This document shows, in pieces, positions 4,554 to 45,080 of a stretch of 64,000 bases of DNA. The stretch is from NCBI GenBank assembly GCA_965205675.1, contig OZ242186.1, forward strand, positions 1,344,001 to 1,408,000. Reading direction: 5' to 3'. This DNA is from Nitrosopumilus sp. GTDB lineage: Archaea > Thermoproteota > Nitrososphaeria > Nitrososphaerales > Nitrosopumilaceae. The notes under the pieces were generated by a model. The model worked only from the letters and a program-made list of their open reading frames with translations. It was not told where the DNA came from and did no database searches. How positions within the stretch are numbered: the first letter of the stretch is position 1; the number at the start of each line of letters is the position of its first letter. Position numbers and translations under genes: made by a program.

Positions 4554-5021
4554 ATGAAAGAGGAAACCACAAACAAAGTAAGAACCAGTCTAGTACGAAA
4601 ACAAAACGTGATATTTGTAGCAATGGTAGCAGTTGGGTTATCCCTAACTGTCATGAGCCAGCTTACAGATTCGCGACTGCTAAGTGAAGGCATAGCCTTT
4701 ATTATAGTTGGATTCGTAGGAATGTTAATGTCTTGGACTACGATGGATGTTGGTGCCAGTATCAAAGAAGCAATACATGATGTTGGCAGACAAAACCTAG
4801 CCGCATTGGAATCCATTGCATCTTCTCAAAAAGAGATGGGCAAATCTCTCAAAGAGATGGACACGTCTCTCAAAGAGATGGACACGTCTCTCAAAGAGAT
4901 AGCATCCTCTCAGAAGGAGATAGCATCCTCTCAGAAGGAGATCAAAGACATTCTAGGTACACATACTACGATTCTAGAAAAGCATACTACAATTCTAGAG
5001 AACCTAGAGAAAAAAGACTGA
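4554..5021 (+). CDS. 2-TM coiled-coil protein, type A (cassette-terminal)
   Basis: Two hydrophobic helices then heptad repeats KEMDTSL/KEIASSQ/KHTTILE; paralogs at 16320 and 26988. Confidence 0.75.
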   Translation: MKEETTNKVRTSLVRKQNVIFVAMVAVGLSLTVMSQLTDSRLLSEGIAFIIVGFVGMLMSWTTMDVGASIKEAIHDVGRQNLAALESIASSQKEMGKSLKEMDTSLKEMDTSLKEIASSQKEIASSQKEIKDILGTHTTILEKHTTILENLEKKD

Positions 5022-5126
5022 GTTTTCAAAAACCCACAATATTTTTTTGACTGAGTCATGCACTCCAAACCAACATTATTTGTAGCAATACAAATCGACT
5101 CAGCGAGTTGGTGTGAGATGTGTAAA

Positions 5127-5266
5127 GAAAATCCATATGGGTTTTTCAAAGTTATTCCTACAGAGGTATTATAGACTATTCTCAAAGGAGAATAATCCGA
5201 GGTATCTCTCATGCCAGGAATCGTCCTACTGGAAACGTTATTTCAGAATAAAAGGAGTTGACGCCA
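5127..5266 (+). repeat. Cassette-head structured repeat, copy 3
   Basis: Copy-2-type 5' part with copy-1-type 3' hairpin. Confidence 0.9.
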
Positions 5267-5620
5267 ATGGCACAACCATACAGTGCAAGTGAAAGCACAC
5301 AAAACAATTCACAAAATCCCGTCCTAGATGGCGATAAAGTCAGTATCTGCGTGAGTGGCAACCAGGTGCAAATACAAAGACCTGATTTTGTAACTGACAA
5401 GCCAATACATGATATCAGCGAGAAGAGAGAAATTCTTGCAAAGGACTTGCTTGAAGAATGGGAGGCAGTATCTGTACAAAAGCAGGGAATCCTGTTTGCA
5501 GTATCTGTAGGAGATAGCAGATACCTAGTCAGAGGACATGACAGGGTACCGGCAAACGCCGTAGTGGTAAGAACCCAATCAAACCAGCTCATGGGTATTG
5601 GGGCAGTAGTAGGAGGTTAA
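5267..5620 (+). CDS. Hypothetical protein with shared leader (duplicate of 2885..3238)
   Basis: Near-identical sequence (Q/H change). Confidence 0.7.
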   Translation: MAQPYSASESTQNNSQNPVLDGDKVSICVSGNQVQIQRPDFVTDKPIHDISEKREILAKDLLEEWEAVSVQKQGILFAVSVGDSRYLVRGHDRVPANAVVVRTQSNQLMGIGAVVGG

Positions 5621-5703
5621 TGTTGTTTTTCAAAAACAACCCCTCTCTTTTCCACCATATCTGCAAATTCCCACAAATCAATTCCAAAAAACGAGAATAA
5701 AAC

Positions 5704-7923
5704 ATGACAAAAATCTACAAGCCCACAATAATATCTGAAGATCCCCTTGACTTGGAGCAATCCAAGATAAGCTACAACAAGAATCTCTTTGAGGGAACAG
5801 AGAATGGATTTATCAAAATGGATGTGGATAAGGATGTTGCAATACAGAGAATGTCAAGGGATTTGTATCAACATGCAAGTTCCGGGTTCCGTGAACTGTA
5901 TGCCAATGAGGCAAGGGCATGCAGGTATGCAAAAAAGCATCACAACGCAGAACCGCTAATCCTCATTACCCTTGATCCGCAAAAACAAAAGCTGGTAATT
6001 GAGGGAATTGACAGTACTGGAATGACATCAGAGAGATTCAAAAAAGTCTTTACGGTACTAGGACACTCTGATAACTTTGATGGTCAAGAGGTAGGTCAGT
6101 TCGGAATGGGACGCGCTGCATACACCTGTCTTTCAGATACAATAATTCTTGAAACTTTTGCAAGAGAGAGCAACGAGAAATATGCAGTACTTGGAAGAAA
6201 CGGTCTCGGATATCAGATAATTGACGAGCCGAAAATGGATACATATGGAACAAAAATCTCGCTGACACTCTACGGGGAGATAAACTATGAGAGTCTATAC
6301 GCCATGATAGAGAAGGTCTCCAAATTCAGCCAGGTCAAGACAGTTCTTGTTTTAGAGTCCAAAATACAGATCAAATACGGGCAGAAAGAGGCAGGACAGT
6401 ACGTCATGGGACCAGTCTCATATGAACAGGCACTCAAAGAACTTGAAGGCAACAAAGAAGATCAATTGCGAATTCCTATTTCTCTGGAAGACGAATCATT
6501 AAGAATTGATGGGTGCATAAATATTTCCAAAAGGTGGGACGGCACTAATGAGATCTACCATGGCTATGAATCCCTCTTTGAGACATATCTGGTAAATGTC
6601 CCAATAGCGACAAAAATACTATCCCCGCTAAGCCATGGAATCCTTACCATCAAAGACGAGAGAAAGTTTCAGCCAACCCCCGACAGAGAAAGACTCAAAG
6701 AAAGCACCGAAGAACAAGTAAAGACATTAGTGCACCGCCTCTTATCTAGAGAATCCGGACTCAACATTGCAACACTTGAGGAATTCTACAACGGCAAAAA
6801 CAGAATGCTCTACGAGTGCCTCAGTGAGAGACGGTATGACAGCGATGATAGAATTATGAGCATACTTGATGAGCGAACCAAAAATCTCATCAAACTTTTG
6901 GAATGCGAGGTATGGTCTACTGATAAGACAAAGCACGCACTAGTATCGTTGTTAGAAAAGCCCTCAAAGATATTTCATGTTGAAAAACTAGAAAAATCCA
7001 AGATTGCCGCACTGCAACAAGATTCTCCGGGATGCCTGATATTTCGCCCAATCAAACCAGATGTTGCCACGATGGAACTGTTTAGTTCATTTGGGATTTT
7101 ATCTGCTCAAAAATATCTGGATGAAAACAAGATTCAGGTAAAGAGAATCACAACAAAGATGACACAATGCGTAGAACACCATTCTACAGTCAGTTATGAC
7201 CAGTACAAATCAAATGTCGCGCTGCACTCATCAAAGGTCCTGTTTGCAGATGTTGGCGAGAAGACAATACGTGCAGATAAAGAGTTTCAGATGGTAAAAA
7301 ACACATTCAAGAATGCCGTCTGCTCATACAAGACAGTCAAGGACAAGGCAGATATCAAAGGAGGAATCGCATTCTCAGACTTTGTCACAGGGATAGAATC
7401 AAAGACATATCCTACAAGCAGCGGAAATATCTTGCCAAAAGACATTGCAAGGTATCCTGACATCACTCTTTTTGAGTATGATAACAGGAATCTTGCGCCA
7501 GCACTTGAGACACGAGAGGATTCCATACTTGTTATCTCAGACGCAGACGAACTCTTTGAGATTGCAGTATACCTGTCATACAAAAACATACCCTATAATT
7601 TTGTCAAAGAGCAATCAAGGTCTAGCGGTGAGAATTGTTTTGATGTTGGTGAAATGATAAACAAATACGGGAAAACGCGAGACGTAACCGTACACACAGA
7701 TGATTACATCATACCGTATTACAACCATGCCGATGACATTCCAAAACTGATGAGCATACTTGATGGAATAATGACTATCAGTAACGAGAAGATGCTGCAC
7801 CTATTCCTTGATGCAACAAAAAAGAACAAGAGGTATGACAACTCAGAGATGCAAAACAAACTGCCCTTCATACAGAGTCATCTTGCAGCAGCTAGGGAGA
7901 TCTCAAAAAGACTGAGTACCTGA
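5704..7923 (+). CDS. GHKL (Hsp90/HATPase_c) ATPase-domain protein, rIIA-like
   Basis: DLY..SGFRELYANE, DSTGMT, GQFGMG and GTKI motifs in the N-terminal ~200 aa. Confidence 0.75.
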   Translation: MTKIYKPTIISEDPLDLEQSKISYNKNLFEGTENGFIKMDVDKDVAIQRMSRDLYQHASSGFRELYANEARACRYAKKHHNAEPLILITLDPQKQKLVIEGIDSTGMTSERFKKVFTVLGHSDNFDGQEVGQFGMGRAAYTCLSDTIILETFARESNEKYAVLGRNGLGYQIIDEPKMDTYGTKISLTLYGEINYESLYAMIEKVSKFSQVKTVLVLESKIQIKYGQKEAGQYVMGPVSYEQALKELEGNKEDQLRIPISLEDESLRIDGCINISKRWDGTNEIYHGYESLFETYLVNVPIATKILSPLSHGILTIKDERKFQPTPDRERLKESTEEQVKTLVHRLLSRESGLNIATLEEFYNGKNRMLYECLSERRYDSDDRIMSILDERTKNLIKLLECEVWSTDKTKHALVSLLEKPSKIFHVEKLEKSKIAALQQDSPGCLIFRPIKPDVATMELFSSFGILSAQKYLDENKIQVKRITTKMTQCVEHHSTVSYDQYKSNVALHSSKVLFADVGEKTIRADKEFQMVKNTFKNAVCSYKTVKDKADIKGGIAFSDFVTGIESKTYPTSSGNILPKDIARYPDITLFEYDNRNLAPALETREDSILVISDADELFEIAVYLSYKNIPYNFVKEQSRSSGENCFDVGEMINKYGKTRDVTVHTDDYIIPYYNHADDIPKLMSILDGIMTISNEKMLHLFLDATKKNKRYDNSEMQNKLPFIQSHLAAAREISKRLST

Positions 7924-8049
7924 GAGGGAATTTTTTTACCCTCTGGGACAGATCATCCAAACCCGTTTTATCCCATATGGGTCCGGCTCAGCGGGCGGGT
8001 GGAGATGATATAAAATATTCTCACATTTGAGAACAGATAACGTCTAGAT

Positions 8050-8181
8050 GAAAAACGTAATTTTCTAAATTATTCCTACAGAGGTATCAGAATCATCTCA
8101 AAGGAGAATGATCCAAGATACCTCTTATGACGGGAATCGTCCTACTGGAAACGTTATTTCAGAATAAAGGAGTTGATGCCA
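8050..8181 (+). repeat. Cassette-head structured repeat, copy 4
   Basis: AGAGGTATC..GATACCTCT perfect stem variant; followed by a 28-aa leader ORF at 8182..8268. Confidence 0.85.
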
Positions 8182-8260
8182 ATGGCACAACCATACGATA
8201 CAGGTACAAGTATCAAAAACGTACAGCAACAAAATTCCGCCCCTTGTGGCAGTGATATAA

Positions 8261-10906
8261 TTGGGTAAGCCAAAATATCATACGCCGCCAATATCTGAAA
8301 TAAAGACTACCTCGCTTGGGGCAGAGGACAGACCAGATAAATTCAATGACATGGTAGGCGATGACGGTCTCATTCACATGAGACTCGAATCAGATGTTGT
8401 AATTGACAGGCTTGCACGTGACATCTATACCAGTCCGACAGCAGGGCTTCGTGAAATATACAACAACGAGGCAAGGCAGTGCAGAACAGCACAAGCCAAG
8501 CACAAACAGAGTCCTGCCCCCACAATACACATAGACGTTGATGCCTCAAAGAGGTCGCTATCCATTCTTGGAACAGACTCTATGGGAATGAGCATGGACA
8601 CGTTTCGCAATGTGTATACTGTTGTAGGCAGGTCCGGCAACCTTTCTGGAGACGAGTCCGGACAGTTCGGATTCGGAAGACTTGCAACAAGACTGCTATC
8701 TGATGTCGTCATAGTTCAGACATACAGCAGGGAGACAGGCGAGCAGTTTGCATTCATATCAAAGGATGGTCGCGCATTTGAGGCAATCAATATGCCTGCA
8801 CTAGAATCATTTGGCACAAAGATATCGATGACTGTCAAAGACGACGTATCGCTTTATGAGATTGTAAAGTATGCACATGAAATGGCAAGGTTTGTAAAAA
8901 TCGATACGGTATTATGTCTGCAAAACGATGTTGTAGAGGATTCTGAGAGTACAAACCCTCTCACATACGAGCAAGGAATATACCAGATAGGAAACGTATC
9001 TGAGCGCGACTACCTCACAGAACAGCTCTGCATCAAGGCAGATGACTGTGTGGATTGGATAGAGATTGACACTCCAGAGTACTATTTTCTCGGAATAGTC
9101 CGTGACAACTATAGAGCACACTACGATGACATGCCAAGACAGCACAATCTCATAGGAATCCCAATAAACATGGATCCGCTAGAGACTGGGGGATGTGACG
9201 GGTACGTACTCAACATCAAAGACGAGCGAAGATACATGCCAACAGCATCACGAGACAATCTGACAGAGCAGGCAGAATCAGAGATACAAGAGAAAGTACA
9301 AGACCAGATATGCAAATTCATAGGATCAATTAAGATAAATTCCATCGAGGATTATCTTGATTGCAAGTACAAGGTAATTGCAAGAAACTGTGAATCGTTT
9401 GATTGTGATGGGATGCACAAAGGCACAAAAACATTTGCCTCACTCTCAAAACTATACATGGACTCTTACACAATAGATGCAGAAAAGAATGCAACCCGCC
9501 GCCACCTAAGGGTCTTTGAAACAATGGACTCTAGTGATGCCAATCCTGCAAAAAACAACATGTACTGCCTTGCAGTAGTTGGCGCAAAGATGAATGCAAT
9601 ATGGGATATAAACCCTGATGCAAAGATAGTGTTTCTCTCACATAGGAACAGTGAATGGAGGGGCAGTTTTGAGATGTTTGGAATACGCAACATCACAGAT
9701 GTTCTAAAAGAACACAACATCAAGGTAGAACGCCAAAAGAAACAGCAGCAGATTCGCGAGGTTGTGACATATGATATGTCATATGGCTATCGCAGAAAGA
9801 TAAATGTCAACGACCTGACTCAAACGCACATTGCGATTCCAAAAGGAGAATACATGCGAGAGTATCTGAACTGCCTGAATACAAACGGAATCAACGGGTA
9901 TAGCATATTTAAGGAAAAGCCTGGCGTGAGTGGAGGAATACCACTAGACGAGTTTGTCTCAAAGGTAAAAAATACAGAGTATTCTGATGGACGTGGAGCG
10001 GTCATCACAGGCAAAAAGATACTGGAGACAGAGGGCATATGCATGCTAGTCAATGATTCAAACAAGTATTCAAAAACACTCACATTGGATATCTGCAAGA
10101 ACAGCATCGAGTCTGCATATGTACTTGTGAGAGGAACAAAAGATACGCTTGACCCACTGCGAGCTGCCATGATACTGTTGTTTAGAGGAGACAACTATAA
10201 TGATGCAGACGACGACAAAATCATCGGACGCGCAATGAGTGCATCTCTGAAGATAAAGTATGACGGGCTATGGGCTGAAAACTATGAAAACCTACGAGAC
10301 ACCCTCTCAAAGATATCGCGCCATCATGCAAGAGAGATATATGTAAGAAGCTATCAGAGACTGTTTGCAACAAGACCTAATCGCTCGCACGGATATTATT
10401 CCAGATATCGTGAAGAACCGGTCCCACTGTACAGTACTACAAATAAGAATGCACTCAGTACACTTGAGGCAGTCTTTGTTGCAATGAGTCAAGATGCAAA
10501 GACAAAAAAGATTACAGCCCAGGCAGTATTACAGCAATGTATGGATGCTGCAAAGGACAGTCCCAGAGAAAAACACGGTGTACTCTCTGAGATATGCACT
10601 GCTGCACTTGACTATACATTTGGTGAAAATGTCAGCGGACCATCAAAGGACAGCATGATAATGGAGACAGCACTGTACACCTTGAAGATACACGGATACA
10701 CTGCAAGGATTCATACCATCAAGGACAACCCCTCAGAGAACACATACATCAAAATATCTCAAGGTGAGACATCTGAGCAGTTTTGCTTTGATACCAGAGA
10801 ATGGAACAAGATGTTTTGTGTAGACTCTATCCACATATGCCTTCAGAACACCACAGTGTACGGCAGTGCCGGTGAGACCTGCATCATAGCAGAGGTAGAG
10901 ATATGA
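8261..10906 (+). CDS. GHKL (Hsp90/HATPase_c) ATPase-domain protein, paralog 2
   Basis: DIY..AGLREIYNNE, DSMGMS, GQFGFG and GTKI motifs; shares IKDER..PT..R with 5704..7923. Confidence 0.75.
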   Translation: MGKPKYHTPPISEIKTTSLGAEDRPDKFNDMVGDDGLIHMRLESDVVIDRLARDIYTSPTAGLREIYNNEARQCRTAQAKHKQSPAPTIHIDVDASKRSLSILGTDSMGMSMDTFRNVYTVVGRSGNLSGDESGQFGFGRLATRLLSDVVIVQTYSRETGEQFAFISKDGRAFEAINMPALESFGTKISMTVKDDVSLYEIVKYAHEMARFVKIDTVLCLQNDVVEDSESTNPLTYEQGIYQIGNVSERDYLTEQLCIKADDCVDWIEIDTPEYYFLGIVRDNYRAHYDDMPRQHNLIGIPINMDPLETGGCDGYVLNIKDERRYMPTASRDNLTEQAESEIQEKVQDQICKFIGSIKINSIEDYLDCKYKVIARNCESFDCDGMHKGTKTFASLSKLYMDSYTIDAEKNATRRHLRVFETMDSSDANPAKNNMYCLAVVGAKMNAIWDINPDAKIVFLSHRNSEWRGSFEMFGIRNITDVLKEHNIKVERQKKQQQIREVVTYDMSYGYRRKINVNDLTQTHIAIPKGEYMREYLNCLNTNGINGYSIFKEKPGVSGGIPLDEFVSKVKNTEYSDGRGAVITGKKILETEGICMLVNDSNKYSKTLTLDICKNSIESAYVLVRGTKDTLDPLRAAMILLFRGDNYNDADDDKIIGRAMSASLKIKYDGLWAENYENLRDTLSKISRHHAREIYVRSYQRLFATRPNRSHGYYSRYREEPVPLYSTTNKNALSTLEAVFVAMSQDAKTKKITAQAVLQQCMDAAKDSPREKHGVLSEICTAALDYTFGENVSGPSKDSMIMETALYTLKIHGYTARIHTIKDNPSENTYIKISQGETSEQFCFDTREWNKMFCVDSIHICLQNTTVYGSAGETCIIAEVEI

Positions 10907-11580
10907 GATCAAATAGTATTCTTGAGAAGAGAGAGGACCTTCTCATAGTAAGAGACAGGCAAGGAACAATCCAAACAGTTCCTGCCACGCAGTACCATCT
11001 TACAAAGTATGAAGTATTTGATGGAAACAGAATCATCTACAAGATAGATGAGAATAGAACCATTACTGAGACGTACAATGATGGCATATTCAACTGTACC
11101 CTGAGAAAGCATACAATCCAGATACGAAAACCAGAAGACGTTGCACTTGCAATAGCAGAGCATGTCAAAAGCAACAGCACGTCAATGTATGATGATATGT
11201 TCTCTGAGGAATTCTCAAGAATTCACAAAGACGAGATACTGGATTCGTTTTTCACAGCACAGCAAGACCGCATAAGAAGACAGGAAGATACAGTAAAGAT
11301 AGACGGCATATTTTATGTCGACTCTCGTGGCACTGCACATGTATGGGACAAACAATCCCAAAAATGGAGCCATCTCTGTATCGTAGTCTCCAAGACAACT
11401 GAGAATCTCATCATAGCAACTCAGGATGGTGAGATAAAGATAGATGATGTAATGCAGAGCATCCTTGCCAAGGTGTCATTTTTGCTACACCCAAACATGG
11501 AAGATACTGTATTTACAGGACAGTTGCCCAAAGACGTCCTGGACTTTTTGAAGAAAAAACATCACACACCACAAAAATAG
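10903..11580 (+). CDS. Hypothetical protein coupled to the ATPase
   Basis: ATGA overlap; 225 aa. Confidence 0.7.
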   Translation: MRSNSILEKREDLLIVRDRQGTIQTVPATQYHLTKYEVFDGNRIIYKIDENRTITETYNDGIFNCTLRKHTIQIRKPEDVALAIAEHVKSNSTSMYDDMFSEEFSRIHKDEILDSFFTAQQDRIRRQEDTVKIDGIFYVDSRGTAHVWDKQSQKWSHLCIVVSKTTENLIIATQDGEIKIDDVMQSILAKVSFLLHPNMEDTVFTGQLPKDVLDFLKKKHHTPQK

Positions 11581-11655
11581 GCATTTTTTTGACAAAGCCT
11601 ACCTGTCTGAACCCGTCACACATTTCTCAGAGACTGATGGGCATAAGACATTAAA

Positions 11656-11796
11656 GAAGATCCACATGGATTTTTCAAAATTATTCCCACAGAGTTGTAA
11701 CGAATTATTTCCAAAAGGGAATAGCTCAACCCAAGCTCTCATGACTGGAATCGTCCTGCTGGTGACGTTACTGCCAGAATAAAGGAGGAACCAATT
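11656..11796 (+). repeat. Cassette-head structured repeat, copy 5
   Basis: Sequence match to the consensus. Confidence 0.9.
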
Positions 11797-12090
11797 ATGG
11801 TCCGACAAAACAGTGCAAGTGAAAGCACACAAAACAATTCACAAAATCCCATCCTTAATACAAATGGTCTCACCCATCACATGGAATGGTCTGAGCACCA
11901 GCAAGAAACACTGGAGTTTCTGCTCGAAGAGCAGGCAGCAAATGAGGAATATTATTCCTCATTAGATGAGCTTTGCTGGCACAGGCACTTTGCAGAGAAG
12001 ATGGACGAGCAGATGGCAAATGAGGAAGAGTATTATTCCTCATTAGATGAACCGCACGGAGTCTCGTGCAACTGTACGGAGTGTAACTAA
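11797..12090 (+). CDS. Leader-bearing small protein with C-terminal H..CxCxxC
   Basis: Paralogs at 21612 and 27617; internal duplication of ANEEYYSSLDE. Confidence 0.7.
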   Translation: MVRQNSASESTQNNSQNPILNTNGLTHHMEWSEHQQETLEFLLEEQAANEEYYSSLDELCWHRHFAEKMDEQMANEEEYYSSLDEPHGVSCNCTECN

Positions 12091-12716
12091 TGGGCTACAC
12101 ACACTACTACTACGTCTCTCAAGAGTTTGATGCAAAACAATTTGCCAAAGTTGCAGCAGACTTTAAGACGATGATAACTCCATTAAAACATCTGGGAGTA
12201 ATTCTGGCAGACGGACTAGGTCAGAACCATCCGAAAATCACTCCAACTGAAATCTGGTTTAATGGATTAGAAAAGTGCGGACATAAGCAAAGAGAACTTG
12301 GAGTCACGTGGCCCGCAGAGAAAGCATCTGGAGTATCTCAAAACAAGATAGACCAGCAGCTAGCAGAACTGGCTAAGGGACACTGGTTTGCAGGTGTACG
12401 ATTGGAGACTCGAGTATGTGACGGGGATTGCTCTCATGAGACATTCAGCCTTGAGCAGAAACTCTCAGAGATACCCCAATGGAAGAAAGAACACAAACCC
12501 GACAGACTGATCTTTGAGTGTACCAAGACTGCATTCAAGCCATATGACCTGGCAGTTAACGTGTGTCTGATAATTGCAAAGCACCACCTCGGTGATGCCA
12601 TCAAAGTAACTTCAGATGGCGATGCAGAAAACTGGCAAGAAGGAATGCAGTTGTGTCAACACTTTCTGGGATACGGAGAAGAGTTCTGCCTTGACAAGGA
12701 GCCAACTGTTGTCTAG
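12090..12716 (+). CDS. Phage/MGE-type conserved protein (MGYTHYY..CTKTAFKPYDLAV family)
   Basis: Recognisable motifs; paralog at 27826. Confidence 0.75.
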   Translation: MGYTHYYYVSQEFDAKQFAKVAADFKTMITPLKHLGVILADGLGQNHPKITPTEIWFNGLEKCGHKQRELGVTWPAEKASGVSQNKIDQQLAELAKGHWFAGVRLETRVCDGDCSHETFSLEQKLSEIPQWKKEHKPDRLIFECTKTAFKPYDLAVNVCLIIAKHHLGDAIKVTSDGDAENWQEGMQLCQHFLGYGEEFCLDKEPTVV

Positions 12717-13035
12717 CACTGCAATCTCTGAGCAAACATCTAAAGGCTCAGATAGATACCATCTCTACGCTGATCCAGGTCATGGATGGCTGAGAGTTCC
12801 AAAAGCAGAGCTGATATCACTAGGTATCGCAGAGCTGATATCACGACACAGCTACATCAAGGGTCAGTATGCATATCTTGAAGAAGACTGTGACTGCCTT
12901 GTCTTTGAGACTGCAAAACAGATACAAGATCCAGATTGGCAGTTGGATGAAAAGCACATCATAGAGCACAACTCCAACAACTCGTCAATCAGAGACTATG
13001 AGATATACGAGAGCGACGACATACACACATGGTAG
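12709..13035 (+). CDS. MGE-type conserved protein (DPGHGWL..LEEDCD motif)
   Basis: Motif recalled from phage/plasmid hypothetical proteins; TTG start inferred. Confidence 0.65.
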   Translation: MSSTAISEQTSKGSDRYHLYADPGHGWLRVPKAELISLGIAELISRHSYIKGQYAYLEEDCDCLVFETAKQIQDPDWQLDEKHIIEHNSNNSSIRDYEIYESDDIHTW

Positions 13036-13451
13036 GTCTCAAAGAGCAGTCAAGAAAGACGCGTGAGAGAATACAGGATACCACAAAAGACAACCGGTTG
13101 TTGTATGTTATCGTGGGTCTTGGAATAGGTCTTCTGGTACTTGGAATCATACCGCCATATGCTGAGATGCTAGTTGCCTTGGGAGCTGCCTTTATTATTG
13201 CCGGAATCGTAGGCATCTACATGATGCTATCAACTCGGCAGGTGGCAAAGAAACTGCACCAGCAATTAGACGACCAAAATGAAATCCTCGAAACACACAC
13301 AGATATTCTCACAAAGATGGATGGTTCCCTAAAGGAGATAGCATCATCTCAGAACAAAAACCATTCAGAGATGATAGACGTTCTAAAAAGAATAGAGACA
13401 GGTTTCTCAACTCTCGGAGAAGGTCTCAAGAAAATAGAGAACAAGCTGTAA
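13029..13451 (+). CDS. 2-TM coiled-coil protein, type B (cassette-terminal)
   Basis: Two TM segments, ends KKIENKL; paralogs at 26392, 31326, 33383, 35461. Confidence 0.75.
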   Translation: MVGLKEQSRKTRERIQDTTKDNRLLYVIVGLGIGLLVLGIIPPYAEMLVALGAAFIIAGIVGIYMMLSTRQVAKKLHQQLDDQNEILETHTDILTKMDGSLKEIASSQNKNHSEMIDVLKRIETGFSTLGEGLKKIENKL

Positions 13452-13546
13452 AGTACAGTTTGATTTGAGAGTACGACGCCTCAAAACCCATTTTAGTTTT
13501 AGCGCAAGCTAGGACCTGATTTATCAGATGGGTGCGAGGTGTCATG

Positions 13547-13688
13547 GAAGATCCATACGGATTTTTCAAAATTATTCCTACAGAGTTGTAACGAATTATT
13601 TCCAAAAGGGAATAACTCAACCCAATCTCTCATGACGGGAATCGTCCTGCTGGTGACGTTACTGCCAGAATAAAAGGAGGAACCAATT
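13547..13688 (+). repeat. Cassette-head structured repeat, copy 6
   Basis: Sequence match to the consensus. Confidence 0.9.
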
Positions 13689-14195
13689 ATGGTCCGACAA
13701 AACAGTGCAGGTGAAAGCACACAAAACAATTCACAAAATCCCGCCTTTAATACAAATGGTCTTACCCATCACATGGAACAGGCTGAACATCGGCAAGAAA
13801 CACCAAAAGAACTCTCCGATTCCCAAATTTTCGAAAAAATAGCACAGGCGATGAGAGAACATACACCAGGCGGAACCAGTAGTGTAAGATATGACGTACA
13901 AGATGAAAGCATCTACAAATCATATCACAGCGGAAACAGATGGGAACAAGGTGAAGACGGATACTGTCCTTATGAAATTTTCACTCTTGAAAAGTGGTGT
14001 GATGACTATGACATATTGCGAATTTTAGGAGAGGACCCAGATTTTGACGATAAAGAAATATTGAGTAATTCTGAAAAGGTTGAATTATTCTTGAAAAATA
14101 TCTCGATCGAAGATTGGGGGTGCTATGATGAAATCGTATACGAAATCGAAGAAGCAAGAAAATATTATGCCGATTTTTTGGAGAGTCAAAAATGA
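13689..14195 (+). CDS. Leader-bearing acidic hypothetical protein
   Basis: Paralog of 19534..20067. Confidence 0.7.
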   Translation: MVRQNSAGESTQNNSQNPAFNTNGLTHHMEQAEHRQETPKELSDSQIFEKIAQAMREHTPGGTSSVRYDVQDESIYKSYHSGNRWEQGEDGYCPYEIFTLEKWCDDYDILRILGEDPDFDDKEILSNSEKVELFLKNISIEDWGCYDEIVYEIEEARKYYADFLESQK

Positions 14196-14355
14196 CTTCT
14201 GATTTTTTAGCACTAGAAGCTGTCAATCTCTCAAAACTCATTAAAGAGCTAGATGCAGATGCCCCAGTTCACGACTGCAAAGAATGTCCATGTGATTGCC
14301 AAGAATGGGATTTCCTTGATGAGAACTCTAAATCCGATATCGGAGTGGCATTCTA

Positions 14356-14661
14356 ATGTCTGCTGAAGGATTTGAGACAATAGCCCAGATGAAACTTGAG
14401 CATCTTCCAAATGATGCAAAGCTGGTCTTGCAGCGACAGAAAAGTGAAATCATTGGCAACAGGATTCAGTTCGGACTGCCATCAACGTTTCTCAACTCTG
14501 AGAACGGACAGACAGTATGGAACAAAGGACCGTCAATCCAGCTAGAGCAGATTCCAGAACTCATCAAAATGCTGCAAGATGCATACGAGAGATACGCAAA
14601 ACAAGACACAAAGAAAGAAAAGACTGTGACATTTGCAGATGCTGTATACACAAAGTTCTAG
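14356..14661 (+). CDS. Hypothetical protein, possibly a PC4-like ssDNA-binding fold
   Basis: WNKGPSIQLEQIPEL resembles the PC4 motif (weak); identical copy at 18269. Confidence 0.55.
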   Translation: MSAEGFETIAQMKLEHLPNDAKLVLQRQKSEIIGNRIQFGLPSTFLNSENGQTVWNKGPSIQLEQIPELIKMLQDAYERYAKQDTKKEKTVTFADAVYTKF

Positions 14662-14663
14662 AT

Positions 14664-14846
14664 ATGGACAGCAAGGAACTGCTACACAGCATAGACAGTC
14701 TAAAACAGTGGATAATACACTCTGAGATGCAAGGAAATCTTGATGTTGCAGACTCGTTTTATCCCGCATACGGGCAGCTTGACATCCTACGCGAAAAGAT
14801 AGAGGAGCAAAGCGACTATGAAGAGTCCTGCAAGAATAATCTCTGA
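14664..14846 (+). CDS. Small hypothetical protein
   Basis: MDSKELL.. start just after the upstream stop; copy at 18577..18759. Confidence 0.5.
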   Translation: MDSKELLHSIDSLKQWIIHSEMQGNLDVADSFYPAYGQLDILREKIEEQSDYEESCKNNL

Positions 14847-14984
14847 TGTGCACAAGGAACTGGGCTTGGTACAGGATTCCATCCGGCAGAGAAGGCACAA
14901 AAAGACGCTCAAAAAGATAAGACAGGAACTAAACAAGATTCTTGATTCCTAATCTTTTTGTATGGTGTAAAAACTAGATAGAAT

Positions 14985-15122
14985 ATGTCTGATACCAAAC
15001 AAGTAGATTCGCCGCCGCTAACAGATGAAGAGATCAAAGATATCAAAGAGTTCTATAGCAATCCAAAAGATCACAAAGTTGGAACCCTTAAAGAATTGCT
15101 TGAAGAGTTGCATGGTGATTAA
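14985..15122 (+). CDS. Putative antitoxin (45 aa, acidic)
   Basis: Read manually: MSDTKQVDSPPLTDEEIKDIKEFY..TLKELLEELHGD; directly before a RelE-like gene. Confidence 0.7.
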   Translation: MSDTKQVDSPPLTDEEIKDIKEFYSNPKDHKVGTLKELLEELHGD

Positions 15123-15125
15123 GAA

Positions 15126-15389
15126 TTGTGGAGGTTAGAGTGGGCCAGTAAATTCACCAAACAATACAAGAAACTCCACTCAGAGATACAACACGATGCA
15201 GATGATGCACTTGAAGAGATTGCATCTTGTACAAACCCCTCAAATCTTGGAACATACAAGGCAGACATGAGATCTTTTTCTTATGAAATCGGCAGAAAAC
15301 ATCGTATCATTTATTCAATACGATACAGAGATGGAATTGTTGATTTGCTTCGTATATGCGACCACAAATCAGTCTACGGCAAAGACTAG
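15126..15389 (+). CDS. RelE/ParE-family toxin
   Basis: W.L....KF.KQYKKL..HRIIY..LLRICDHKSVY pattern. Confidence 0.8.
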   Translation: MWRLEWASKFTKQYKKLHSEIQHDADDALEEIASCTNPSNLGTYKADMRSFSYEIGRKHRIIYSIRYRDGIVDLLRICDHKSVYGKD

Positions 15390-15489
15390 AAAGAACAAAC
15401 AAATTTTTTGAGCAAAATATCTAGATGCATCAAATCTCAAAGCAATCAGATTTTAGAGATTCTTTGATGGATGGCTGCTAGATAACATG

Positions 15490-15628
15490 GAAGATCCATA
15501 CGGATTTTTCAAAATTATTCCCACAGAGTTGTAACGAATTATTTCCAAAAGGGAATAACTCAGCCCAAGCTCTCATGACGGGAATCGTCCTGCTGGAAAC
15601 GTTATTTCAGAATTAGGAGGAACCAATT
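15490..15628 (+). repeat. Cassette-head structured repeat, copy 7
   Basis: Sequence match to the consensus. Confidence 0.9.
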
Positions 15629-15850
15629 ATGGTCCGACAAAACAGTGCAAGTGAAAGCACACAAAACAAATCACAAAATCCCGGAGAACTGGTAAGAGAA
15701 ATCCACTGGGAGCATAGATTGTGGATGTCTACACGTATACGGATGGAAAACGCAATGAAGACCGTAAGAATATCTGCAAGACTGCCCGAAAAGAAAGACA
15801 GATGGAATGAGAGCGTATCCTGTGAGATTCTGGAGCAAGTACAGAAATGA
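15629..15850 (+). CDS. Leader-bearing hypothetical protein
   Basis: MVRQNSASESTQNKSQNP start after the SD-like motif. Confidence 0.6.
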   Translation: MVRQNSASESTQNKSQNPGELVREIHWEHRLWMSTRIRMENAMKTVRISARLPEKKDRWNESVSCEILEQVQK

Positions 15851-16134
15851 GTATGGAACAGAATCTCAAAGAAGAGAGGCTGGAGAAATTCCGCAAAGCC
15901 TTTGAAGCATTTGTGGACGATCCACAAGTTGCAGGAACAGCAGACGAGTTCCACAGTTATGAGGAGAGTTATTGCGGACTGTGGGTTTCTGGAGAATCAG
16001 GAAACAGTCTTGACGGCATCTGCGTGTTCCAGTATGGTGGAAATGACCACCCAAAACTTGAAGAATTCCTAGACAAATGGAACGCACACTATGAATGGTA
16101 TGACTGTGGAACCGTAATGATTTATCTTGAGTAG
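15847..16134 (+). CDS. Acidic hypothetical protein
   Basis: ATGA overlap; 95 aa. Confidence 0.65.
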   Translation: MSMEQNLKEERLEKFRKAFEAFVDDPQVAGTADEFHSYEESYCGLWVSGESGNSLDGICVFQYGGNDHPKLEEFLDKWNAHYEWYDCGTVMIYLE

Positions 16135-16319
16135 TCACGAGATACATGCCAACCATAGACAACCTCAAAAACTAGGGTCCAAAGACTGACGACATCGGGT
16201 GACCTACCCCAATTTTTTGTGACCTGACAATCCTCTCAAATCCAATATCATACTATGACACCTGACAGGCAGATTGGATGTGGAGATGGTACAGATGCTT
16301 GCAGCATCATACAGAAACA

Positions 16320-16745
16320 ATGAACAAAAAAACAACAAACAAAGTAAAAACCAGTCTAGTACGAAAACAAAACGTGATATTTGTAGCAATGGTAGCAGTT
16401 GGGTTATCCCTAACTGTCATGAGCCAGCTTACAGATTCGCGACTGCTAAGTGAAGGCATAGCCTTTATTATAGTTGGATTCGTAGGAATGTTAATGTCTT
16501 GGACTACGATGGATGTTGGTGCCAGTATCAAAGAAGCAATACATGATGTTGGCAGACAAAACCTAGCCGCATTGGAATCCATTGCATCCTCTCAGAAAGA
16601 GATGGACAAGTCTCTCAAAGAGATCAAAGACATTCTAGGTACACATACTACAATTCTAGAAAAGCATACTACAATTCTAGAAAAGCATACTACGATTCTA
16701 GAAAAGCATACTACAATTCTAGAGAACCTAGAGAAAAAAGACTGA
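16320..16745 (+). CDS. 2-TM coiled-coil protein, type A
   Basis: Paralog of 4554 with 4 copies of HTTILE. Confidence 0.75.
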   Translation: MNKKTTNKVKTSLVRKQNVIFVAMVAVGLSLTVMSQLTDSRLLSEGIAFIIVGFVGMLMSWTTMDVGASIKEAIHDVGRQNLAALESIASSQKEMDKSLKEIKDILGTHTTILEKHTTILEKHTTILEKHTTILENLEKKD

Positions 16746-16850
16746 GTTTTCAAAAACCCACAATATTTTTTTGACTGAGTCATGCACTCCAAACCAACAT
16801 TATTTGTAGCAATACAAATCGACTCAGCGAGTTGGTGTGAGATGTGTAAA

Positions 16851-16991
16851 GAAGATCCATATGGGTTTTCCAAGTTATTCCTACAGAGTTATTTTCAGAA
16901 TCATCTCAAAAGAGAATAATCTGAGATATCTCTCATGCCAGGAATCGTCCTACTGGTGACGTTACATCCAGAATAAAAGGAGGAACCAATT
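16851..16991 (+). repeat. Cassette-head structured repeat, copy 8
   Basis: Variant inner stem ATCTC-AAAA-GAGAAT. Confidence 0.9.
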
Positions 16992-17819
16992 ATGGTCCGA
17001 CAAAACAGTGCAAGTGAAAGCACACAAAACAATTCACATCAAAAGACAATACAGCACATGACAGATATGGCATCAGCCATATGTGCCATTCAGGCAGAGC
17101 ATGCACATCCCTTGAACAAGGAGTCATACCCCACATATACAGAAACAGAAAAGATACTGTACAATATGCTTACTGAGAACACGGGGGCACACATACTTGA
17201 TTCAGGAGGAGCATATGGCAGACACTGGCAGCAAAACCGTGGGATTGCCGACTTTAACAGCATACCTAGTGTGAAAACCCACAAAATGTATGGTGCAAGA
17301 AAACACGTCTTTGCAATAGTTAACGATATTGCAACGTATGACAAAGCAGTAGACTGTAAATTCCACAAGTTTGCAGCAGCACCAGAAAACCGAGACAAAT
17401 TATGGGTTGAGAACATGGAAGAGTTTGCTGAGACGTATAACGAGGATGACTGGTTAAAAGATCATGGCGCAAACACATACGGTTTCGAGTCCTATTGTGG
17501 CAACCAAGAAATGCAGTACGACTTTCTCACAATAGACGGCCACACATACATCGTCTTGCAATTCCATGGAGGATGCGACATACGCGAAGGATACACAACA
17601 CCACACGTCTTTGAATGCGACTATGATGATTTCATAATTGCAAGCACGCAGATCTCCATTAGCTGCATGTGTAACTGTGCATATTCTGACGGCTTTGACT
17701 GGACTGATGATTCAGGAGACGACGTAGAGTTCTCATGGGATGACGGATTACACTCTTGCTGGAACTGGAAGAATGATGACACATTATTCTGCAGCAAATG
17801 CAAAAGGGTTGCAGCATAG
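16992..17819 (+). CDS. Leader-bearing virus-type protein (ENTG.HILDSGGAYGRHWQ..HGGCD.R.GYT)
   Basis: Motifs recalled from phage/archaeal-virus hypothetical proteins; C-terminal Cys cluster. Confidence 0.7.
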   Translation: MVRQNSASESTQNNSHQKTIQHMTDMASAICAIQAEHAHPLNKESYPTYTETEKILYNMLTENTGAHILDSGGAYGRHWQQNRGIADFNSIPSVKTHKMYGARKHVFAIVNDIATYDKAVDCKFHKFAAAPENRDKLWVENMEEFAETYNEDDWLKDHGANTYGFESYCGNQEMQYDFLTIDGHTYIVLQFHGGCDIREGYTTPHVFECDYDDFIIASTQISISCMCNCAYSDGFDWTDDSGDDVEFSWDDGLHSCWNWKNDDTLFCSKCKRVAA

Positions 17820-19292: not shown

Positions 19293-19392
19293 AAAGAACA
19301 AACAAATTTTTTGAGCAAAATATCTAGATGCATCAAATCTCAAAGCAATCAGATTTTAGAGATTCTTTGATAGATGGCTGCTAGATAACATG

Positions 19393-19533
19393 GAAGATCC
19401 ATACGGATTTTTCAAAATTATTCCCACAGAGTTGTAACGAATTATTTCCAAAAGGGAATAACTCAACCCAAGCTCTCATGACGGGAATCGTCCTGCTGGA
19501 AACGTTATTTCAGAATAAAAGGAGGAACCGATT
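19393..19533 (+). repeat. Cassette-head structured repeat, copy 9
   Basis: Sequence match to the consensus. Confidence 0.9.
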
Positions 19534-20067
19534 ATGGTCCGACAAAACAGTGCAAGTGAAAGCACGCAAAACAATTCACAAAATCCCGCCTTTAATACAA
19601 ATGGTCTTACCCATCACATGGAACAGACTGAACACCAGCAAGAAACACCAAAAGAACTCTCCGATTCCCAAATTTTTGAAAAAATAGAACAGGCGATGAG
19701 AGAACATACACCAGGAGCAAATTCAGGAGTAAGATACGACGTGAAAAACGAACATGTCTACACAGTCATGTATCACGGGAACTCGTGGGATCAAGATGAA
19801 GACGGATATATTCCATACGAGATCTTCACAATTCCAAACTGGGCTGACGATTCAGATATTCGTGCAATGCTCGGGTGTCCTTGCGATGAGGAACAAGCTC
19901 GGGAATACGTACAAGAGTATGAAGACATGACCGTTGATGATTTTCTGGATATAGAAAAAATTCTCCCCACTATAATTTGGTGTGAATTGGAAGAGTATGC
20001 TGAAATTCTTGACGAAATAGAAGAAGCACGAAAACAATATGCGGAATTTTCGGAGAGACAAAATTGA
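19534..20067 (+). CDS. Leader-bearing acidic hypothetical protein
   Basis: Paralog of 13689. Confidence 0.7.
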   Translation: MVRQNSASESTQNNSQNPAFNTNGLTHHMEQTEHQQETPKELSDSQIFEKIEQAMREHTPGANSGVRYDVKNEHVYTVMYHGNSWDQDEDGYIPYEIFTIPNWADDSDIRAMLGCPCDEEQAREYVQEYEDMTVDDFLDIEKILPTIIWCELEEYAEILDEIEEARKQYAEFSERQN

Positions 20068-21425: not shown

Positions 21426-21471
21426 CATTTCTAAGATAATTATCTTTAGAATCCAATGAGTTTTTGGTACA

Positions 21472-21611
21472 GAAAATCAAAGACAGATTTTCAAAATTAT
21501 TCCTACAGAGTTGTGTAGAATTATTCTCATAGAGTGTGATTCAAAGTAACTCTCATGACAGGAATCGTACTGCTGGAGACGTTACTGCCAGAATAAAAGG
21601 AGGAACCAATT
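21472..21611 (+). repeat. Cassette-head structured repeat, copy 10
   Basis: Variant GAATTATTCTC-ATA-GAGTGTGATTC. Confidence 0.9.
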
Positions 21612-21824
21612 ATGGTCCGACAAAACAGTGCAAGTGAAAGCACACAAAACAATTCACAAAATCCCGCCCTTAATACAAATGGTCTCACCCATCACGTGGA
21701 ATGGACTGAGGAGCAGCAAGAAACCCTGCGGTTTCTGCTCGAAGAGCAGGTAGCAAATGAGGAATATTATTCCTCATTGGATGAACCGCACGGAGTCTCG
21801 TGCAACTGTACAGAGTGCAACTAA
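21612..21824 (+). CDS. Leader-bearing small Cys/His protein
   Basis: Paralog of 11797. Confidence 0.7.
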   Translation: MVRQNSASESTQNNSQNPALNTNGLTHHVEWTEEQQETLRFLLEEQVANEEYYSSLDEPHGVSCNCTECN

Positions 21825-25032: not shown

Positions 25033-25123
25033 AGAAACCAAAACAAATTTTTTGAACAAAACATCCAAGACTCATAGCATTTCTAAGATAATTATCTTTA
25101 GAATCCAATGAGTTTTTGGTACA

Positions 25124-25263
25124 GAAAATCAAAGACAGATTTTCAAAATTATTCCTACAGAGTTGTGTAGAATTATTCTCATAGAGTATGATTCAAAGTA
25201 GCTCTCATGACGGGAATCGTCCTGCTGGTGACGTTACTGCCAGAATAAAAGGAGGAACCAATT
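25124..25263 (+). repeat. Cassette-head structured repeat, copy 11
   Basis: Close to copy 10. Confidence 0.9.
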
Positions 25264-25539
25264 ATGGTCCGACAAAACAGTGCAAGTGAAAGCACACAAA
25301 ACAAATCACAGCAAAACAACGATGCAGTAAAAGTCGACATAGAAAATTCAAACGACAGTTCTATGGCAAACAGCAAAAAAGGCATCAAGTTACTAAGAGC
25401 TGAAATACAGGCACACTTTTGCCAAATCCAAGAATACCTGGATGAAAACGATGCAGATCATACCAGGTACGCATTCCATGAAGCAGACACTGCAGCCCAC
25501 AAAATAAGGGATTTGTGTGATATGGAGGCCGGACAATAA
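25264..25539 (+). CDS. Leader-bearing hypothetical protein
   Basis: MVRQNSASESTQNKSQ start. Confidence 0.65.
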   Translation: MVRQNSASESTQNKSQQNNDAVKVDIENSNDSSMANSKKGIKLLRAEIQAHFCQIQEYLDENDADHTRYAFHEADTAAHKIRDLCDMEAGQ

Positions 25540-26391: not shown

Positions 26392-26868
26392 ATGTTTGGC
26401 AAAGGTACGGATGTACAAAAAACCAACATCAGTGATCAGGTAAAGGACAATCGATGGCTGTTTGTCATTGTATCTCTTGGCATCGGTCTGTTGATAACAG
26501 GAGTGGTTTTGTGGAACGAGACACTTGTCGCCATAGGAGCTGCCTTTATTATTGCCGGCGGTGTAGGGATATACATGATGCTTGCAACAAGACAGGTGGC
26601 AAAACAACTACACCTGCGATTCAACGAGCAAAATGACATCTTAGAGAGGCTAGATGAAAGCTCCGGCAAGCAGACAGACATCCTCAAAGACATGGATAAA
26701 TCTCTAAATGAGATAGCATCATCTCAGAAAGACATAGCATCATCTCAGAAAGACATAGCATCATCTCAGAAACAAAACCATTCAGAGATGATAGACGTTC
26801 TAAAAAGAATAGAGACAGGTTTCTCAAATCTCGGAGAAGGTCTCAAGAAAATCGAAGACAAGCTGTAA
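26392..26868 (+). CDS. 2-TM coiled-coil protein, type B
   Basis: 3 copies of the IASSQK heptad. Confidence 0.75.
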   Translation: MFGKGTDVQKTNISDQVKDNRWLFVIVSLGIGLLITGVVLWNETLVAIGAAFIIAGGVGIYMMLATRQVAKQLHLRFNEQNDILERLDESSGKQTDILKDMDKSLNEIASSQKDIASSQKDIASSQKQNHSEMIDVLKRIETGFSNLGEGLKKIEDKL

Positions 26869-26987: not shown

Positions 26988-27371
26988 ATGAAAGAGAAAA
27001 CAACAAACAAAGTAAGAACCAGTCTAGTACGAAAACAAAACGTGATATTTGTAGCAATGGTAGCAGTTGGGTTATCCCTAACTGTCATGAGCCAGCTTAC
27101 AGATTCGCGACTGCTAAGTGAAGGCATAGCCTTTATTATAGTTGGATTCGTAGGAATGTTAATGTCTTGGACTACGATGGATATTGGTGCCAGTATCAAA
27201 GAAGCAATATATGATGTTGGCAGACAAAACCTAGCCGCATTGGAATCCATTGCATCTTCTCAAAAAGAGATGGGCAGGTCTCTCAAGGAGATAGCATCCT
27301 CTCAGAAGGAGATCAAAGACATTCTAGGTACACATACTACAATTCTAAAGAACCTAGAGAAAAAAGACTGA
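26988..27371 (+). CDS. 2-TM coiled-coil protein, type A
   Basis: Shortest heptad variant of 4554. Confidence 0.75.
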   Translation: MKEKTTNKVRTSLVRKQNVIFVAMVAVGLSLTVMSQLTDSRLLSEGIAFIIVGFVGMLMSWTTMDIGASIKEAIYDVGRQNLAALESIASSQKEMGRSLKEIASSQKEIKDILGTHTTILKNLEKKD

Positions 27372-27476
27372 GTTTTCAAAAACCCACAATATTTTTTTGA
27401 CTGAGTCATGCACTCCAAACCAACATTATTTGTAGCAATACAAATCGACTCAGCGAGTTGGTGTGAGATGTGTAAA

Positions 27477-27616
27477 GAAGATCCATACGGATTTTCCAAA
27501 GTTGTTCCTACAGAGTTATTTTCAGAATCATCTCAAAAGAGAATGATTCGGGTATCTCTCATGACAGGAATCGTCCTGCTGGAAACGTTATTTCAGAATA
27601 TAGGAGGAAAAGTCAA
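27477..27616 (+). repeat. Cassette-head structured repeat, copy 12
   Basis: Copy-8-like variant. Confidence 0.9.
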
Positions 27617-27826
27617 ATGGCTTTACCAAACAATACAAGTACAAGTATAACAAATGTACAAAATCCCGCCTTTTATGGAAAAGGCATTACACCATCCATG
27701 GAATGGACACAAGAACAACAAGAAATCTTGCAAGATCAACTTGAAGAACAGGTTGCAAATGAGGAATACTATGGTACCCTAGATGAACCACATGGATGGA
27801 CATGTAATTGTCTGGAGTGCAACTAA
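27617..27826 (+). CDS. Small Cys/His protein with divergent leader
   Basis: Paralog of 11797 and 21612. Confidence 0.7.
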   Translation: MALPNNTSTSITNVQNPAFYGKGITPSMEWTQEQQEILQDQLEEQVANEEYYGTLDEPHGWTCNCLECN

Positions 27827-31781: not shown

Positions 31782-31876
31782 AGTACAGTTTGATTTGAGA
31801 GTACGACACCTCAAAACCCATTTTAGTTTTAGCGCAAGCTAGGACCTGATTTATCAGATGGGTGCGAGGTGTCATG

Positions 31877-45009: not shown

Positions 45010-45080
45010 TAATATCTCATAACCGTTTACACACAGCAAATACCAAAACTATCCAGAGAAGACTAAACCATACAACAATA

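Follow-up and report, generated by a model that had tools for sequence, protein, structure and literature searches.

In a 64,000-nt stretch of a Nitrosopumilus genome (contig OZ242186.1, positions 1,344,001 to 1,408,000; hereafter the window), an anchor regular expression finds 15 copies of the 140-nt repeat at 11656-11796, this one included, all on the plus strand and none on the minus strand. Each copy lies directly 5' of an AGGAGG and of the ATG that opens the first open reading frame (ORF) of a cassette, which spans 1.4-4.4 kb and holds 2-10 ORFs on the same strand. Here, we found by comparison of the copies that the conserved unit is larger than this span, about 330 nt, and that its helices are maintained by compensatory changes at a fixed place relative to the Shine-Dalgarno sequence (SD) and the start codon. 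The unit begins with a T-run, which is followed by an upstream module (U2/U3), the helices P1-P5, an exposed perfect SD, the helix P6 with the ATG and, in roughly half of the copies, a hairpin-pseudoknot within the first ~15 codons; in the copy under study, the fifth of the window, these parts extend from 11578 to 11842 (Table 1). The structure is unbroken through the SD and the AUG and continues ~45 nt into the coding sequence. Judged from the sequence, we lean towards the view that the unit is a sense-strand mRNA leader, which would serve as a standard translation-initiation module before every cassette.

The same pattern counted 19 copies in the whole genome (18 forward and one reverse), and its backwards control returned 0 and 0. 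The genome is a single contig of 2,011,361 bases with a completeness of 99.88% and a G+C content of 33.7%, and the host is archaeal (its small-subunit rRNA scores 1467 bits with the archaeal against 1097 bits with the bacterial model). Eighteen copies, three of them just upstream of the window, form one same-strand array at contig positions 1,338,498-1,380,126; the array spans ~1,336,600-1,381,800 and has a G+C content of ~42%, compared with the 33.7% of the genome. One further copy stands alone at 1,153,654, on the opposite strand. In 19 of 19 cases the orientation of the copy is that of the ORF behind it. The solo copy (contig 1153624-1153772, minus strand; locus L078 5624-5772) adjoins insertion-sequence-like ORFs and precedes a truncated, 112-aa relative of the 330-aa protein of the first cassette. 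The first unit of the array is without P1-P5 (contig 1336300-1336705, locus L080 10300-10705; in a second species locus L067 15000-14664, minus strand) and carries a different noncoding leader of ~350 nt, kept between the two species, with a U-like module (ATCGACTCAGCGAGTAGGTATGAG) and a TTTTTAAAT box. This leader could represent an RNA of its own or a region of master control.

For the 15 copies, RNAalifold predicted the hairpin P1 on the 5' side, the hairpin P5 on the 3' side and the long hairpin P2-P3-P4 between them. For the 13 distinct window copies, 92.9% of the cells in this 37-pair structure are paired, compared with 88.2 +/- 0.7% in shuffled controls (0 of 500 reached the observed value) and 30-56% when the partners were slid against each other; eight pairs show changes on both sides. 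We built a covariance model from the 15 window copies and searched other genomes with it. Among 58 matches (47 distinct copies from nine species) aligned to this model, an alignment that is fitted to the structure, 92.0% of the cells pair; shuffling lowers this to 76.3 +/- 0.6% and sliding of the partners to 29.7-55.0%. Of the 37 pairs, 33 have changed on both sides. The comparison was repeated on alignments made by MAFFT only: for 37 representatives of less than 80% identity, RNAalifold recovered U2, P3 and the apex of P4, with compensatory changes in 15 of the 16 predicted pairs, and for 57 sequences of the 3' part the cells of P5, P6 and P7 were paired in 82.2% of cases (75.5% shuffled, 20-40% slid).

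The preliminary description of this repeat, made from the letters of the window, held that structure is conserved more than sequence, and the retention of P1-P5 across the 47 distinct copies bears this out. The substitutions it listed are all present in the 15-copy alignment. The outer stem ATTCCC/GGGAAT reads ATTCCT/AGGAAT in copies 2, 3, 8 and 10, and also in copy 12; AGAGGTATC/GATACCTCT belongs to copy 4, TATTCTC-AAAG-GAGAATA to copies 2 and 3, and CTGGTG..CTGCCAG alternates with CTGGAA..TTTCAG around an ACGTTA that is invariant in the window. The span 11656-11796 also proved to be exact: its first base opens P1 and its last directly precedes the ATG. P1 can even be replaced wholesale between copies, as in GTTGAGAT:ATCTCAAT; another of its two-sided changes is AAAAGATC:GATCTTTT.

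The most invariant stretch of the unit comprises the 3' arm of P2, the linker and P5 with its ACGTTA loop (11765-11770), where P5 itself covaries between TG..C-G and AA..T-T. ACGTTA is present in all copies except those of one lineage, in which the loop reads GCGTTA and the linker CGC in place of CGT; this CGC:GCG lineage is a single hint that linker and loop might form a small pseudoknot. Most junctions vary in sequence and length. A pseudoknot between the P5 loop and the P3/P4 junction (UAACG) was considered and dropped, since it is possible in one sequence type only, and inspection by eye of the P2/P3 junction and the other internal loops for kink-turns (L7Ae sites, with tandem sheared G.A pairs behind a 3-nt bulge) and bulge-helix-bulge motifs (splicing-endonuclease sites, with two 3-nt bulges separated by 4 bp) found none. 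The GA of CAUGAC is not conserved, as CAUAU, ACAUAC, GCAGAC and CAAAA also occur.

Upstream of P1, a run of six to eight T stands at a near-constant distance 5' of U2 in most copies and species and is a candidate archaeal terminator, T-rich promoter box, or both. It is followed by the conserved letters GACTGAG and CATCCAAACC. In most copies, ACCCRT:AYGGGT then encloses a variable hairpin, U3, together with a conserved CGACTCAGCGG. The pairing of U2 is upheld by covariation (ACCCAT:ATGGGT, ACCAAC:GTTGGT, ACCCGT:ACGGGT, ACTCAT:ATGAGT, CATCAAA:TTTGATG). Two further pairings in this module, GACTGAG with CTCAG and CTCA with TGAG, showed no covariation and were rejected, as was a promoter inside U3 or between P1 and P2, where the motif distances vary (22-33 nt and 3-11 nt, respectively) and both flanking helices covary.

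At the start codon, P6 takes the form TTGAACC-N4-5-GGTCCAA in most species, has compensatory versions (TTGACGCC/GGCACAA, AAAGTC/GGCTTT and GATACTAT/ATGGTATC) and pairs in 77.5% of the cells of the MAFFT alignment. Further into the coding sequence, P7 is a 4-bp hairpin at codons 6-11 whose loop complements a site 6-10 nt beyond it. Loop and site covary (GTGAA:TTCAC, GTACA:TGTAC, GTGCA:TGCAC, ACGT:ACGT, GTGC:GCAC), and 27 of 59 distinct sequences can form at least four Watson-Crick pairs between them, while the codons paired in this way specify unrelated residues (E/S, T/V, A/A). The extension of the structure into the codons explains the odd conserved N-terminus (MVQQ.., ..SASESTQNNSQ..) that is common to otherwise unrelated first proteins.

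The copies compared contain no conserved anti-SD; the SD is therefore exposed in the consensus fold. It had been suggested initially that the TCCT before the last hairpin could pair with the AGGA of the SD and act as a translational switch. This idea did not survive the comparison: of the distinct copies, 12 of 16 in this genome and 0 of 48 elsewhere have TCCT, and the latter carry TCT (18), ACT (17), ACC (8) or TTT (1) at this place or were not matched (4).

How does such a unit compare with the start sites of the host? In the 789 host ORFs that encode 250 aa or more, the distribution of TATA-like hexamers has a sharp maximum 28-31 nt upstream of the ATG (133 hits versus a few per position elsewhere), while GGAG or GAGG at -18 to -3 is found in 10.5% (2.9% in a control window) and GGAGG in 1.5%. 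Since a TATA-like peak at this distance is the signature of leaderless transcripts, host messages look mostly leaderless, with a rare SD. In the array, the SD precedes 17 of 17 first-of-cassette ORFs found by script and 20 of 57 internal ORFs, many of which overlap or abut the preceding ORF in an operon-like manner. The 3' end of the host 16S rRNA (GGATCACCTCCT) carries the matching CCUCC and ends in CCTCCT. A scan for bacterial-type promoters and terminators was discarded as not meaningful in an archaeon; its minus-strand 'terminators' are P6 read backwards.

We infer that the folded molecule is RNA and speculate that it works as follows. Each cassette would be transcribed separately. Behind the preceding gene, the T-run would end the upstream transcript and/or be a T-rich promoter box, and RNA would start ~27-30 nt past it, just before U2, with the 5' end locked in a helix; the near-constant distance between the T-run and U2 would fit a T-rich box that places the start at this point. 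U2/U3, P1 and the long P2-P3-P4 hairpin may form a stable scaffold, and the core of linker and P5 (CGU.CU.CUG...ACGUUA) may be the binding site of a protein or another factor, or a small pseudoknot. P5 (about -38 to -20) and P7 (about +17 to +32) would flank an unpaired SD and leave it a window of about the size of the 30S footprint, in which the weak P6 alone would lie and present the AUG. With the first codons fixed, initiation would be independent of the gene that follows and the ribosome-binding site would be insulated, and, in this mostly leaderless host, a single factor could adjust all cassettes jointly.

Which of the two strands folds? Covarying structure on the sense strand lies 5' of and across the start codon, as in cis-acting structured leaders in general, with a moderate preference for this strand. 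The fifth copy folds with -37.1 kcal/mol (z-score -2.45) on the plus strand and with -30.8 kcal/mol (z-score +0.21) on the minus strand. The preliminary description had pointed to G-T pairs on the plus strand, and the window copies indeed contain 52 G.T, 13 A.C and 21 other non-canonical pairs in P1-P5; over all copies the count is 154 G.T versus 61 A.C, where base composition alone would give a ratio of ~1.2. Thus, where a pair stands between A-T and G-C, the intermediate on the plus strand is usually G.T, which argues against a fold of the template (minus) strand. For P1-P5 of this genome the wobble argument stands; it loses strength in other genomes and is reversed in P6. The sense strand is favoured but not proven as the folding strand.

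Several observations weigh against a sense-strand RNA leader. In other genomes the wobble count falls to 95 G.T versus 50 A.C, in an alignment fitted with RNA scoring, which favours G.U. The plus strand has the lower minimum free energy in 29 of 41 representatives for the core, in 20 of 41 for the whole unit and in 12 of 41 for the part from the SD to +50. In 36 of 57 sequences, a synonymous site places a conserved A.C in P6, equivalent to a G.U on the minus strand, and the alignment of 57 3' parts holds 46 G.T versus 73 A.C (37 A.C without that pair). P7 and its pseudoknot are missing in about half of the copies. The plus-strand letters, when scanned, show no host-type TATA hexamer at a fixed place in the unit or between the cassettes, and the promoter of each cassette is only guessed. 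Since the copies are related by duplication and recombination, their fixed spacing to the AUG and their co-orientation are inherited and do not count as independent evidence. Finally, RNA and sense-strand DNA fit these data alike, and the conjugative context described below raises the prior for a function in single-stranded DNA.

This context is found upstream of the array, where genes for a 559-aa TraG/VirB4-type P-loop ATPase, an 850-aa coupling-protein-like ATPase (TraG-D_C, T4SS-DNA_transf), a ParM/actin-like protein and a divergent TATA-binding protein (TBP) are located. In a second species the same neighbourhood is kept, with identities of 49-51% for the two ATPases, 39% for the TBP-like and 69% for the ParM-like protein; ParM-like genes flank arrays also in two more genomes and one metagenome contig. 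The divergent TBP has 167 aa and scores 46 bits, while the three host TBP genes score 94-102 bits per repeat. It is found, in addition to three ordinary TBP genes per genome, 5-13 kb from the start of the array in three of the four array-bearing genomes examined, beside the ATPase genes in two of them, and it could read the T-rich boxes before the units. The cassette proteins mostly belong to no Pfam or PHROGs family. Among those that do are an ArdC_N-like protein (Pfam E = 1.5e-4; PHROG 'anti-restriction protein', E = 1.8e-10) and a ParE toxin, and a related array encodes an AbiEi protein; for the 330-aa first-cassette protein, the best ESM Atlas score was 0.79 (PcfJ-like), below the usable level. 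From the coupling-protein- and VirB4-like ATPases, the neighbouring genes and the ArdC-like cassette genes, we regard the island as apparently of the conjugative kind and the array as its accessory genes.

Could the unit then act in the transferred DNA strand, as an archaeal counterpart of Frpo or ssi that provides a promoter and/or a priming site every ~2 kb upon entry? We consider this unlikely, although it deserves serious attention. The Frpo and ssi elements in the leading regions of F and IncI1 (ColIb-P9) are likewise repeated structured units of ~330 nt, conserved in structure over sequence, that precede same-direction accessory and anti-restriction genes of a conjugative element. The comparison, drawn already in the preliminary description, is therefore apt as far as the context is concerned: the adjoining ATPase genes with their synteny in a second species, the ArdC_N-like proteins, the single direction of the genes, the nearby divergent TBP and the lack of a canonical TATA between the cassettes all suit it, as do the A.C in P6 and the nearly equal folding of both strands over the whole unit. 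However, a template-strand hairpin would show A.C mismatches on the sense strand of P1-P5, where G.T prevails, and the z-scores of the fifth copy favour the plus strand, with P6 and the equal whole-unit energies as caveats; the sense strand, if transferred, cannot template these genes. A promoter or primer site needs neither the SD nor the AUG nor the codons that lie inside this structure. Furthermore, the unit strings together separate hairpins in place of one long imperfect hairpin with promoter boxes, and a genome can carry as many as 19 copies; in this archaeal host, which is without sigma-70 and -35/-10 boxes, no hairpin-rebuilt promoter box was seen, given the lack of a TATA at a fixed place in the plus-strand letters.

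A related scenario, which we find quite improbable as judged from the sequence, is that folding of the module, in the single strand upon entry or in the first transcripts, switches on the anti-restriction and establishment cassettes at once, with the divergent TBP of the island acting on the T-rich box. If true, archaeal conjugation would gain its first described entry-expression device, and a mobile-element TBP its first role.

The position of one unit between every two cassettes, the lack of a visible host-type promoter there, and an invariant unpaired core (linker and ACGUUA loop) surrounded by covarying helices, as is typical of enzyme sites and ribozymes, would also suit a punctuation site, at which long transcripts are cut per unit by an endonuclease of the host or the island or by self-cleavage into stable cassette mRNAs. 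The context of early and anti-restriction genes resembles the early region of phage T7, where RNase III sites are structured elements between genes, including an anti-restriction gene, and could similarly define message ends. This explanation seems quite improbable to us. A T-run of six to eight residues, which should stop archaeal RNA polymerase, ends each cassette and fits separate transcription units better. No known ribozyme family matched at E up to 1-10, and no bulge-helix-bulge motif was found by eye. Moreover, the unit is five times larger than a T7 RNase III site, and to our knowledge most archaea are without RNase III.

With its several helices and with invariant unpaired nucleotides immediately upstream of the SD, the unit might further recall a ligand-sensing riboswitch that controls all cassettes, in which the possible CGU:ACG pseudoknot of linker and loop, with its one covarying CGC:GCG lineage, could take part. 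We rate this as very improbable: a conserved alternative pairing that hides the SD or the AUG is absent, most junctions are variable, the downstream mobile-element genes are mixed and share no metabolite logic, and no Rfam riboswitch matched. A comparison can also be made with the S4-binding pseudoknot of the E. coli alpha operon and the phage T4 gene 32 leader, in which a fold with a pseudoknot spans leader, SD and AUG into the coding sequence, and the invariant unpaired core of our unit could similarly be a protein site. Unlike these translational operators, which serve one operon each, the module stands before up to 19 unrelated cassettes and leaves its SD exposed.

An array of same-direction cassettes, mosaic and in part duplicated, with boundary repeats kept in structure over sequence, invites comparison with integrons, in which the repeats would be DNA recombination sites in the manner of attC. 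Such a role has very little to recommend it. The genome contains seven PF00589 tyrosine-recombinase matches, of which the nearest, at 1,249,268 and 1,681,455, leave ~89 kb to the array, so that no integrase is nearby. The unit consists of at least six separate helices 5' of the cassette, fused to the SD and ATG, in place of the single bulged hairpin with R''/L''-L'/R' symmetry of the attC consensus, and the cassettes hold 2-10 genes each. DNA contigs over 5300-16800 do break at the repeats; their short-sided joints fit repeats or relatives in the sample. A look-up of sequencing runs found the stretch in three DNA runs of one study and in no RNA run. In these DNA runs, the conserved modules in this interval (the unit and the last-gene repeats) reach a summed depth of hundreds to thousands, compared with 6-19 for the parts unique to a cassette; although summed depth does not measure copy number, the contrast hints at many related copies in the same samples.

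Is the unit a common element among related archaea? The covariance model matched in 8 of 150 genomes of other Nitrosopumilus species, with 15, 10, 6, 3, 2, 1, 1 and 1 copies, mostly in same-strand arrays, and in 0 of 141 genomes from 26 other genera of the family and 0 of 24 from other families of the order. In metagenomes, a pattern scan gave 31 stretches, of which nine hold true copies according to the model and 22 none. A pattern scan of genome contigs gave 22 stretches; nine non-Nitrosopumilus loci were put to the model and two matched, both on one contig of 10,178 bases with three unit copies, from a metagenome-assembled genome labelled Nitrospinales. Its cassette proteins, e.g. those of 351 and 207 aa, are near-identical to proteins of the window, and the contig most probably derives from a Nitrosopumilus island and was binned wrongly. 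The other seven loci (Eubacteriaceae, Scytonema, Chitinophagaceae, Cohnella, Crocosphaera, Lachnospiraceae and Methanomassiliicoccus), to which the model gave no match, are chance pattern matches. The pattern scan found no copies in viral contigs, and blastn found no match in phage records.

Membership in a known Rfam family had been named in the preliminary description as a finding that would tell against it, and none emerged: Rfam 15 gave no match in the whole window at gathering scores, only two chance-level minus-strand hits over 11560-11860 at E up to 10 (snoR99, 17 bits; Atu_Ti3, 13 bits), and no hit over the element at E up to 1 in ten loci from five other species. The literature searched contained no published description of the element; in the parts available, PMC6563490 does not mention ArdC, ParM, actin or such an array, and PMC5069720 has nothing on leaders or TATA in Thaumarchaeota. 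Repeated structured elements before conjugative accessory genes are a known kind, and so are structured leaders over the ribosome-binding site. What appears to be new here is the combination of an archaeal host, the sense strand, a length of ~330 nt with the start codon inside, and up to 19 copies.

Few large structured nucleic-acid families with strong covariation and no database match are known in archaea. As Nitrosopumilus is among the most abundant marine archaeal genera, the unit bears on how the mobile elements of this genus express their genes. A perfect SD behind a long leader in a mostly leaderless host offers a handle on the recruitment of archaeal ribosomes by mobile elements, and the array makes the idea of an archaeal conjugative equivalent of bacterial leading-region expression devices testable. 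In its design, with a fixed leader and first codons before interchangeable genes, the module looks like a natural standardised expression cassette.

Table 1. Positions of the parts of the unit in the fifth copy, of all window copies and of associated features (window coordinates unless stated otherwise).
Feature	Position	Strand	Observation
Span with all 15 window copies	91-36156	+	each copy heads a multi-gene cassette
Covariance-model matches, copies 1-8	91-241, 2737-2887, 5120-5269, 8040-8184, 11649-11799, 13540-13691, 15483-15631, 16844-16994	+	
Covariance-model matches, copies 9-15	19386-19536, 21465-21614, 25117-25266, 27470-27619, 31870-32021, 33948-34099, 36005-36156	+	
Stop codon of preceding ORF (10903-11580), then T-run (11584-11590)	11578-11590	+	
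Upstream module U, here only U2: CCCGTCA (11612-11618) with TGATGGG (11635-11641)	11612-11641	+	
P1 hairpin, GAAGATCC-ACAT-GGATTTTTC	11656-11676	+	8 of 8 pairs change on both sides, 47 distinct copies
Long three-helix hairpin P2-P3-P4	11683-11751	+	covariation
P2	11683-11688 with 11746-11751	+	both-side changes in 5 of 6 pairs
P3	11691-11697 with 11732-11739	+	both-side changes in 7 of 7 pairs
P4, apical loop AAAA	11702-11727	+	both-side changes in 10 of 10 pairs
Linker CGTCCTG and P5 hairpin (CTGGTG-ACGTTA-CTGCCAG)	11752-11777	+	nearly invariant core
SD AGGAGG, in the A-rich linker between P5 and P6	11783-11788	+	unpaired
P6, GGAACC..GGTCC here, ATG (11797-11799) in loop and 3' arm	11787-11803	+	compensatory versions
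P7 in coding sequence (GTGC-AAGTGAAA-GCAC, 11813-11828); loop GTGAA complements TTCAC (11838-11842)	11813-11842	+	H-type pseudoknot
Divergent TBP paralogue	contig 1324802-1325305 (locus L134 10802-11305)		
Divergent TBP paralogue	locus L070 10411-10992	-	
Divergent TBP paralogue	locus L067 19314-19853	+	
21-nt in-frame repeats	4809-4957, 16581-16726, 26665-26771, 27222-27328, 31578-31705, 33656-33783, 35734-35840		

Many cassettes close, just before the next unit, with a gene for a small membrane coiled-coil protein that contains 21-nt in-frame repeats, i.e. seven residues of the KEMGKSL/KEIASSQ type. Just beyond the cassette array lie two long, perfect, short-period tandem arrays (38068-38496 and 45049-45301), one with a period of 13 nt (23 registers listed) and the other with a period of 11 nt (AGAGAGTACAG). 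Further downstream, the interval 46277-53571 encodes a defence-type pair, a 1329-aa Eco57I/MmeI-type methyltransferase fusion and, behind it, a 1102-aa PLD-nuclease/SNF2 helicase; a BsuBI/PstI-type restriction-methylase fusion is encoded upstream of the array (locus L134 2271-4739). On the far side of the island, at 56195-60609, we found a cluster of insertion-sequence transposases (DDE_Tnp_1, IS110, and IS66 with a zinc-finger ORF), mostly on the minus strand.

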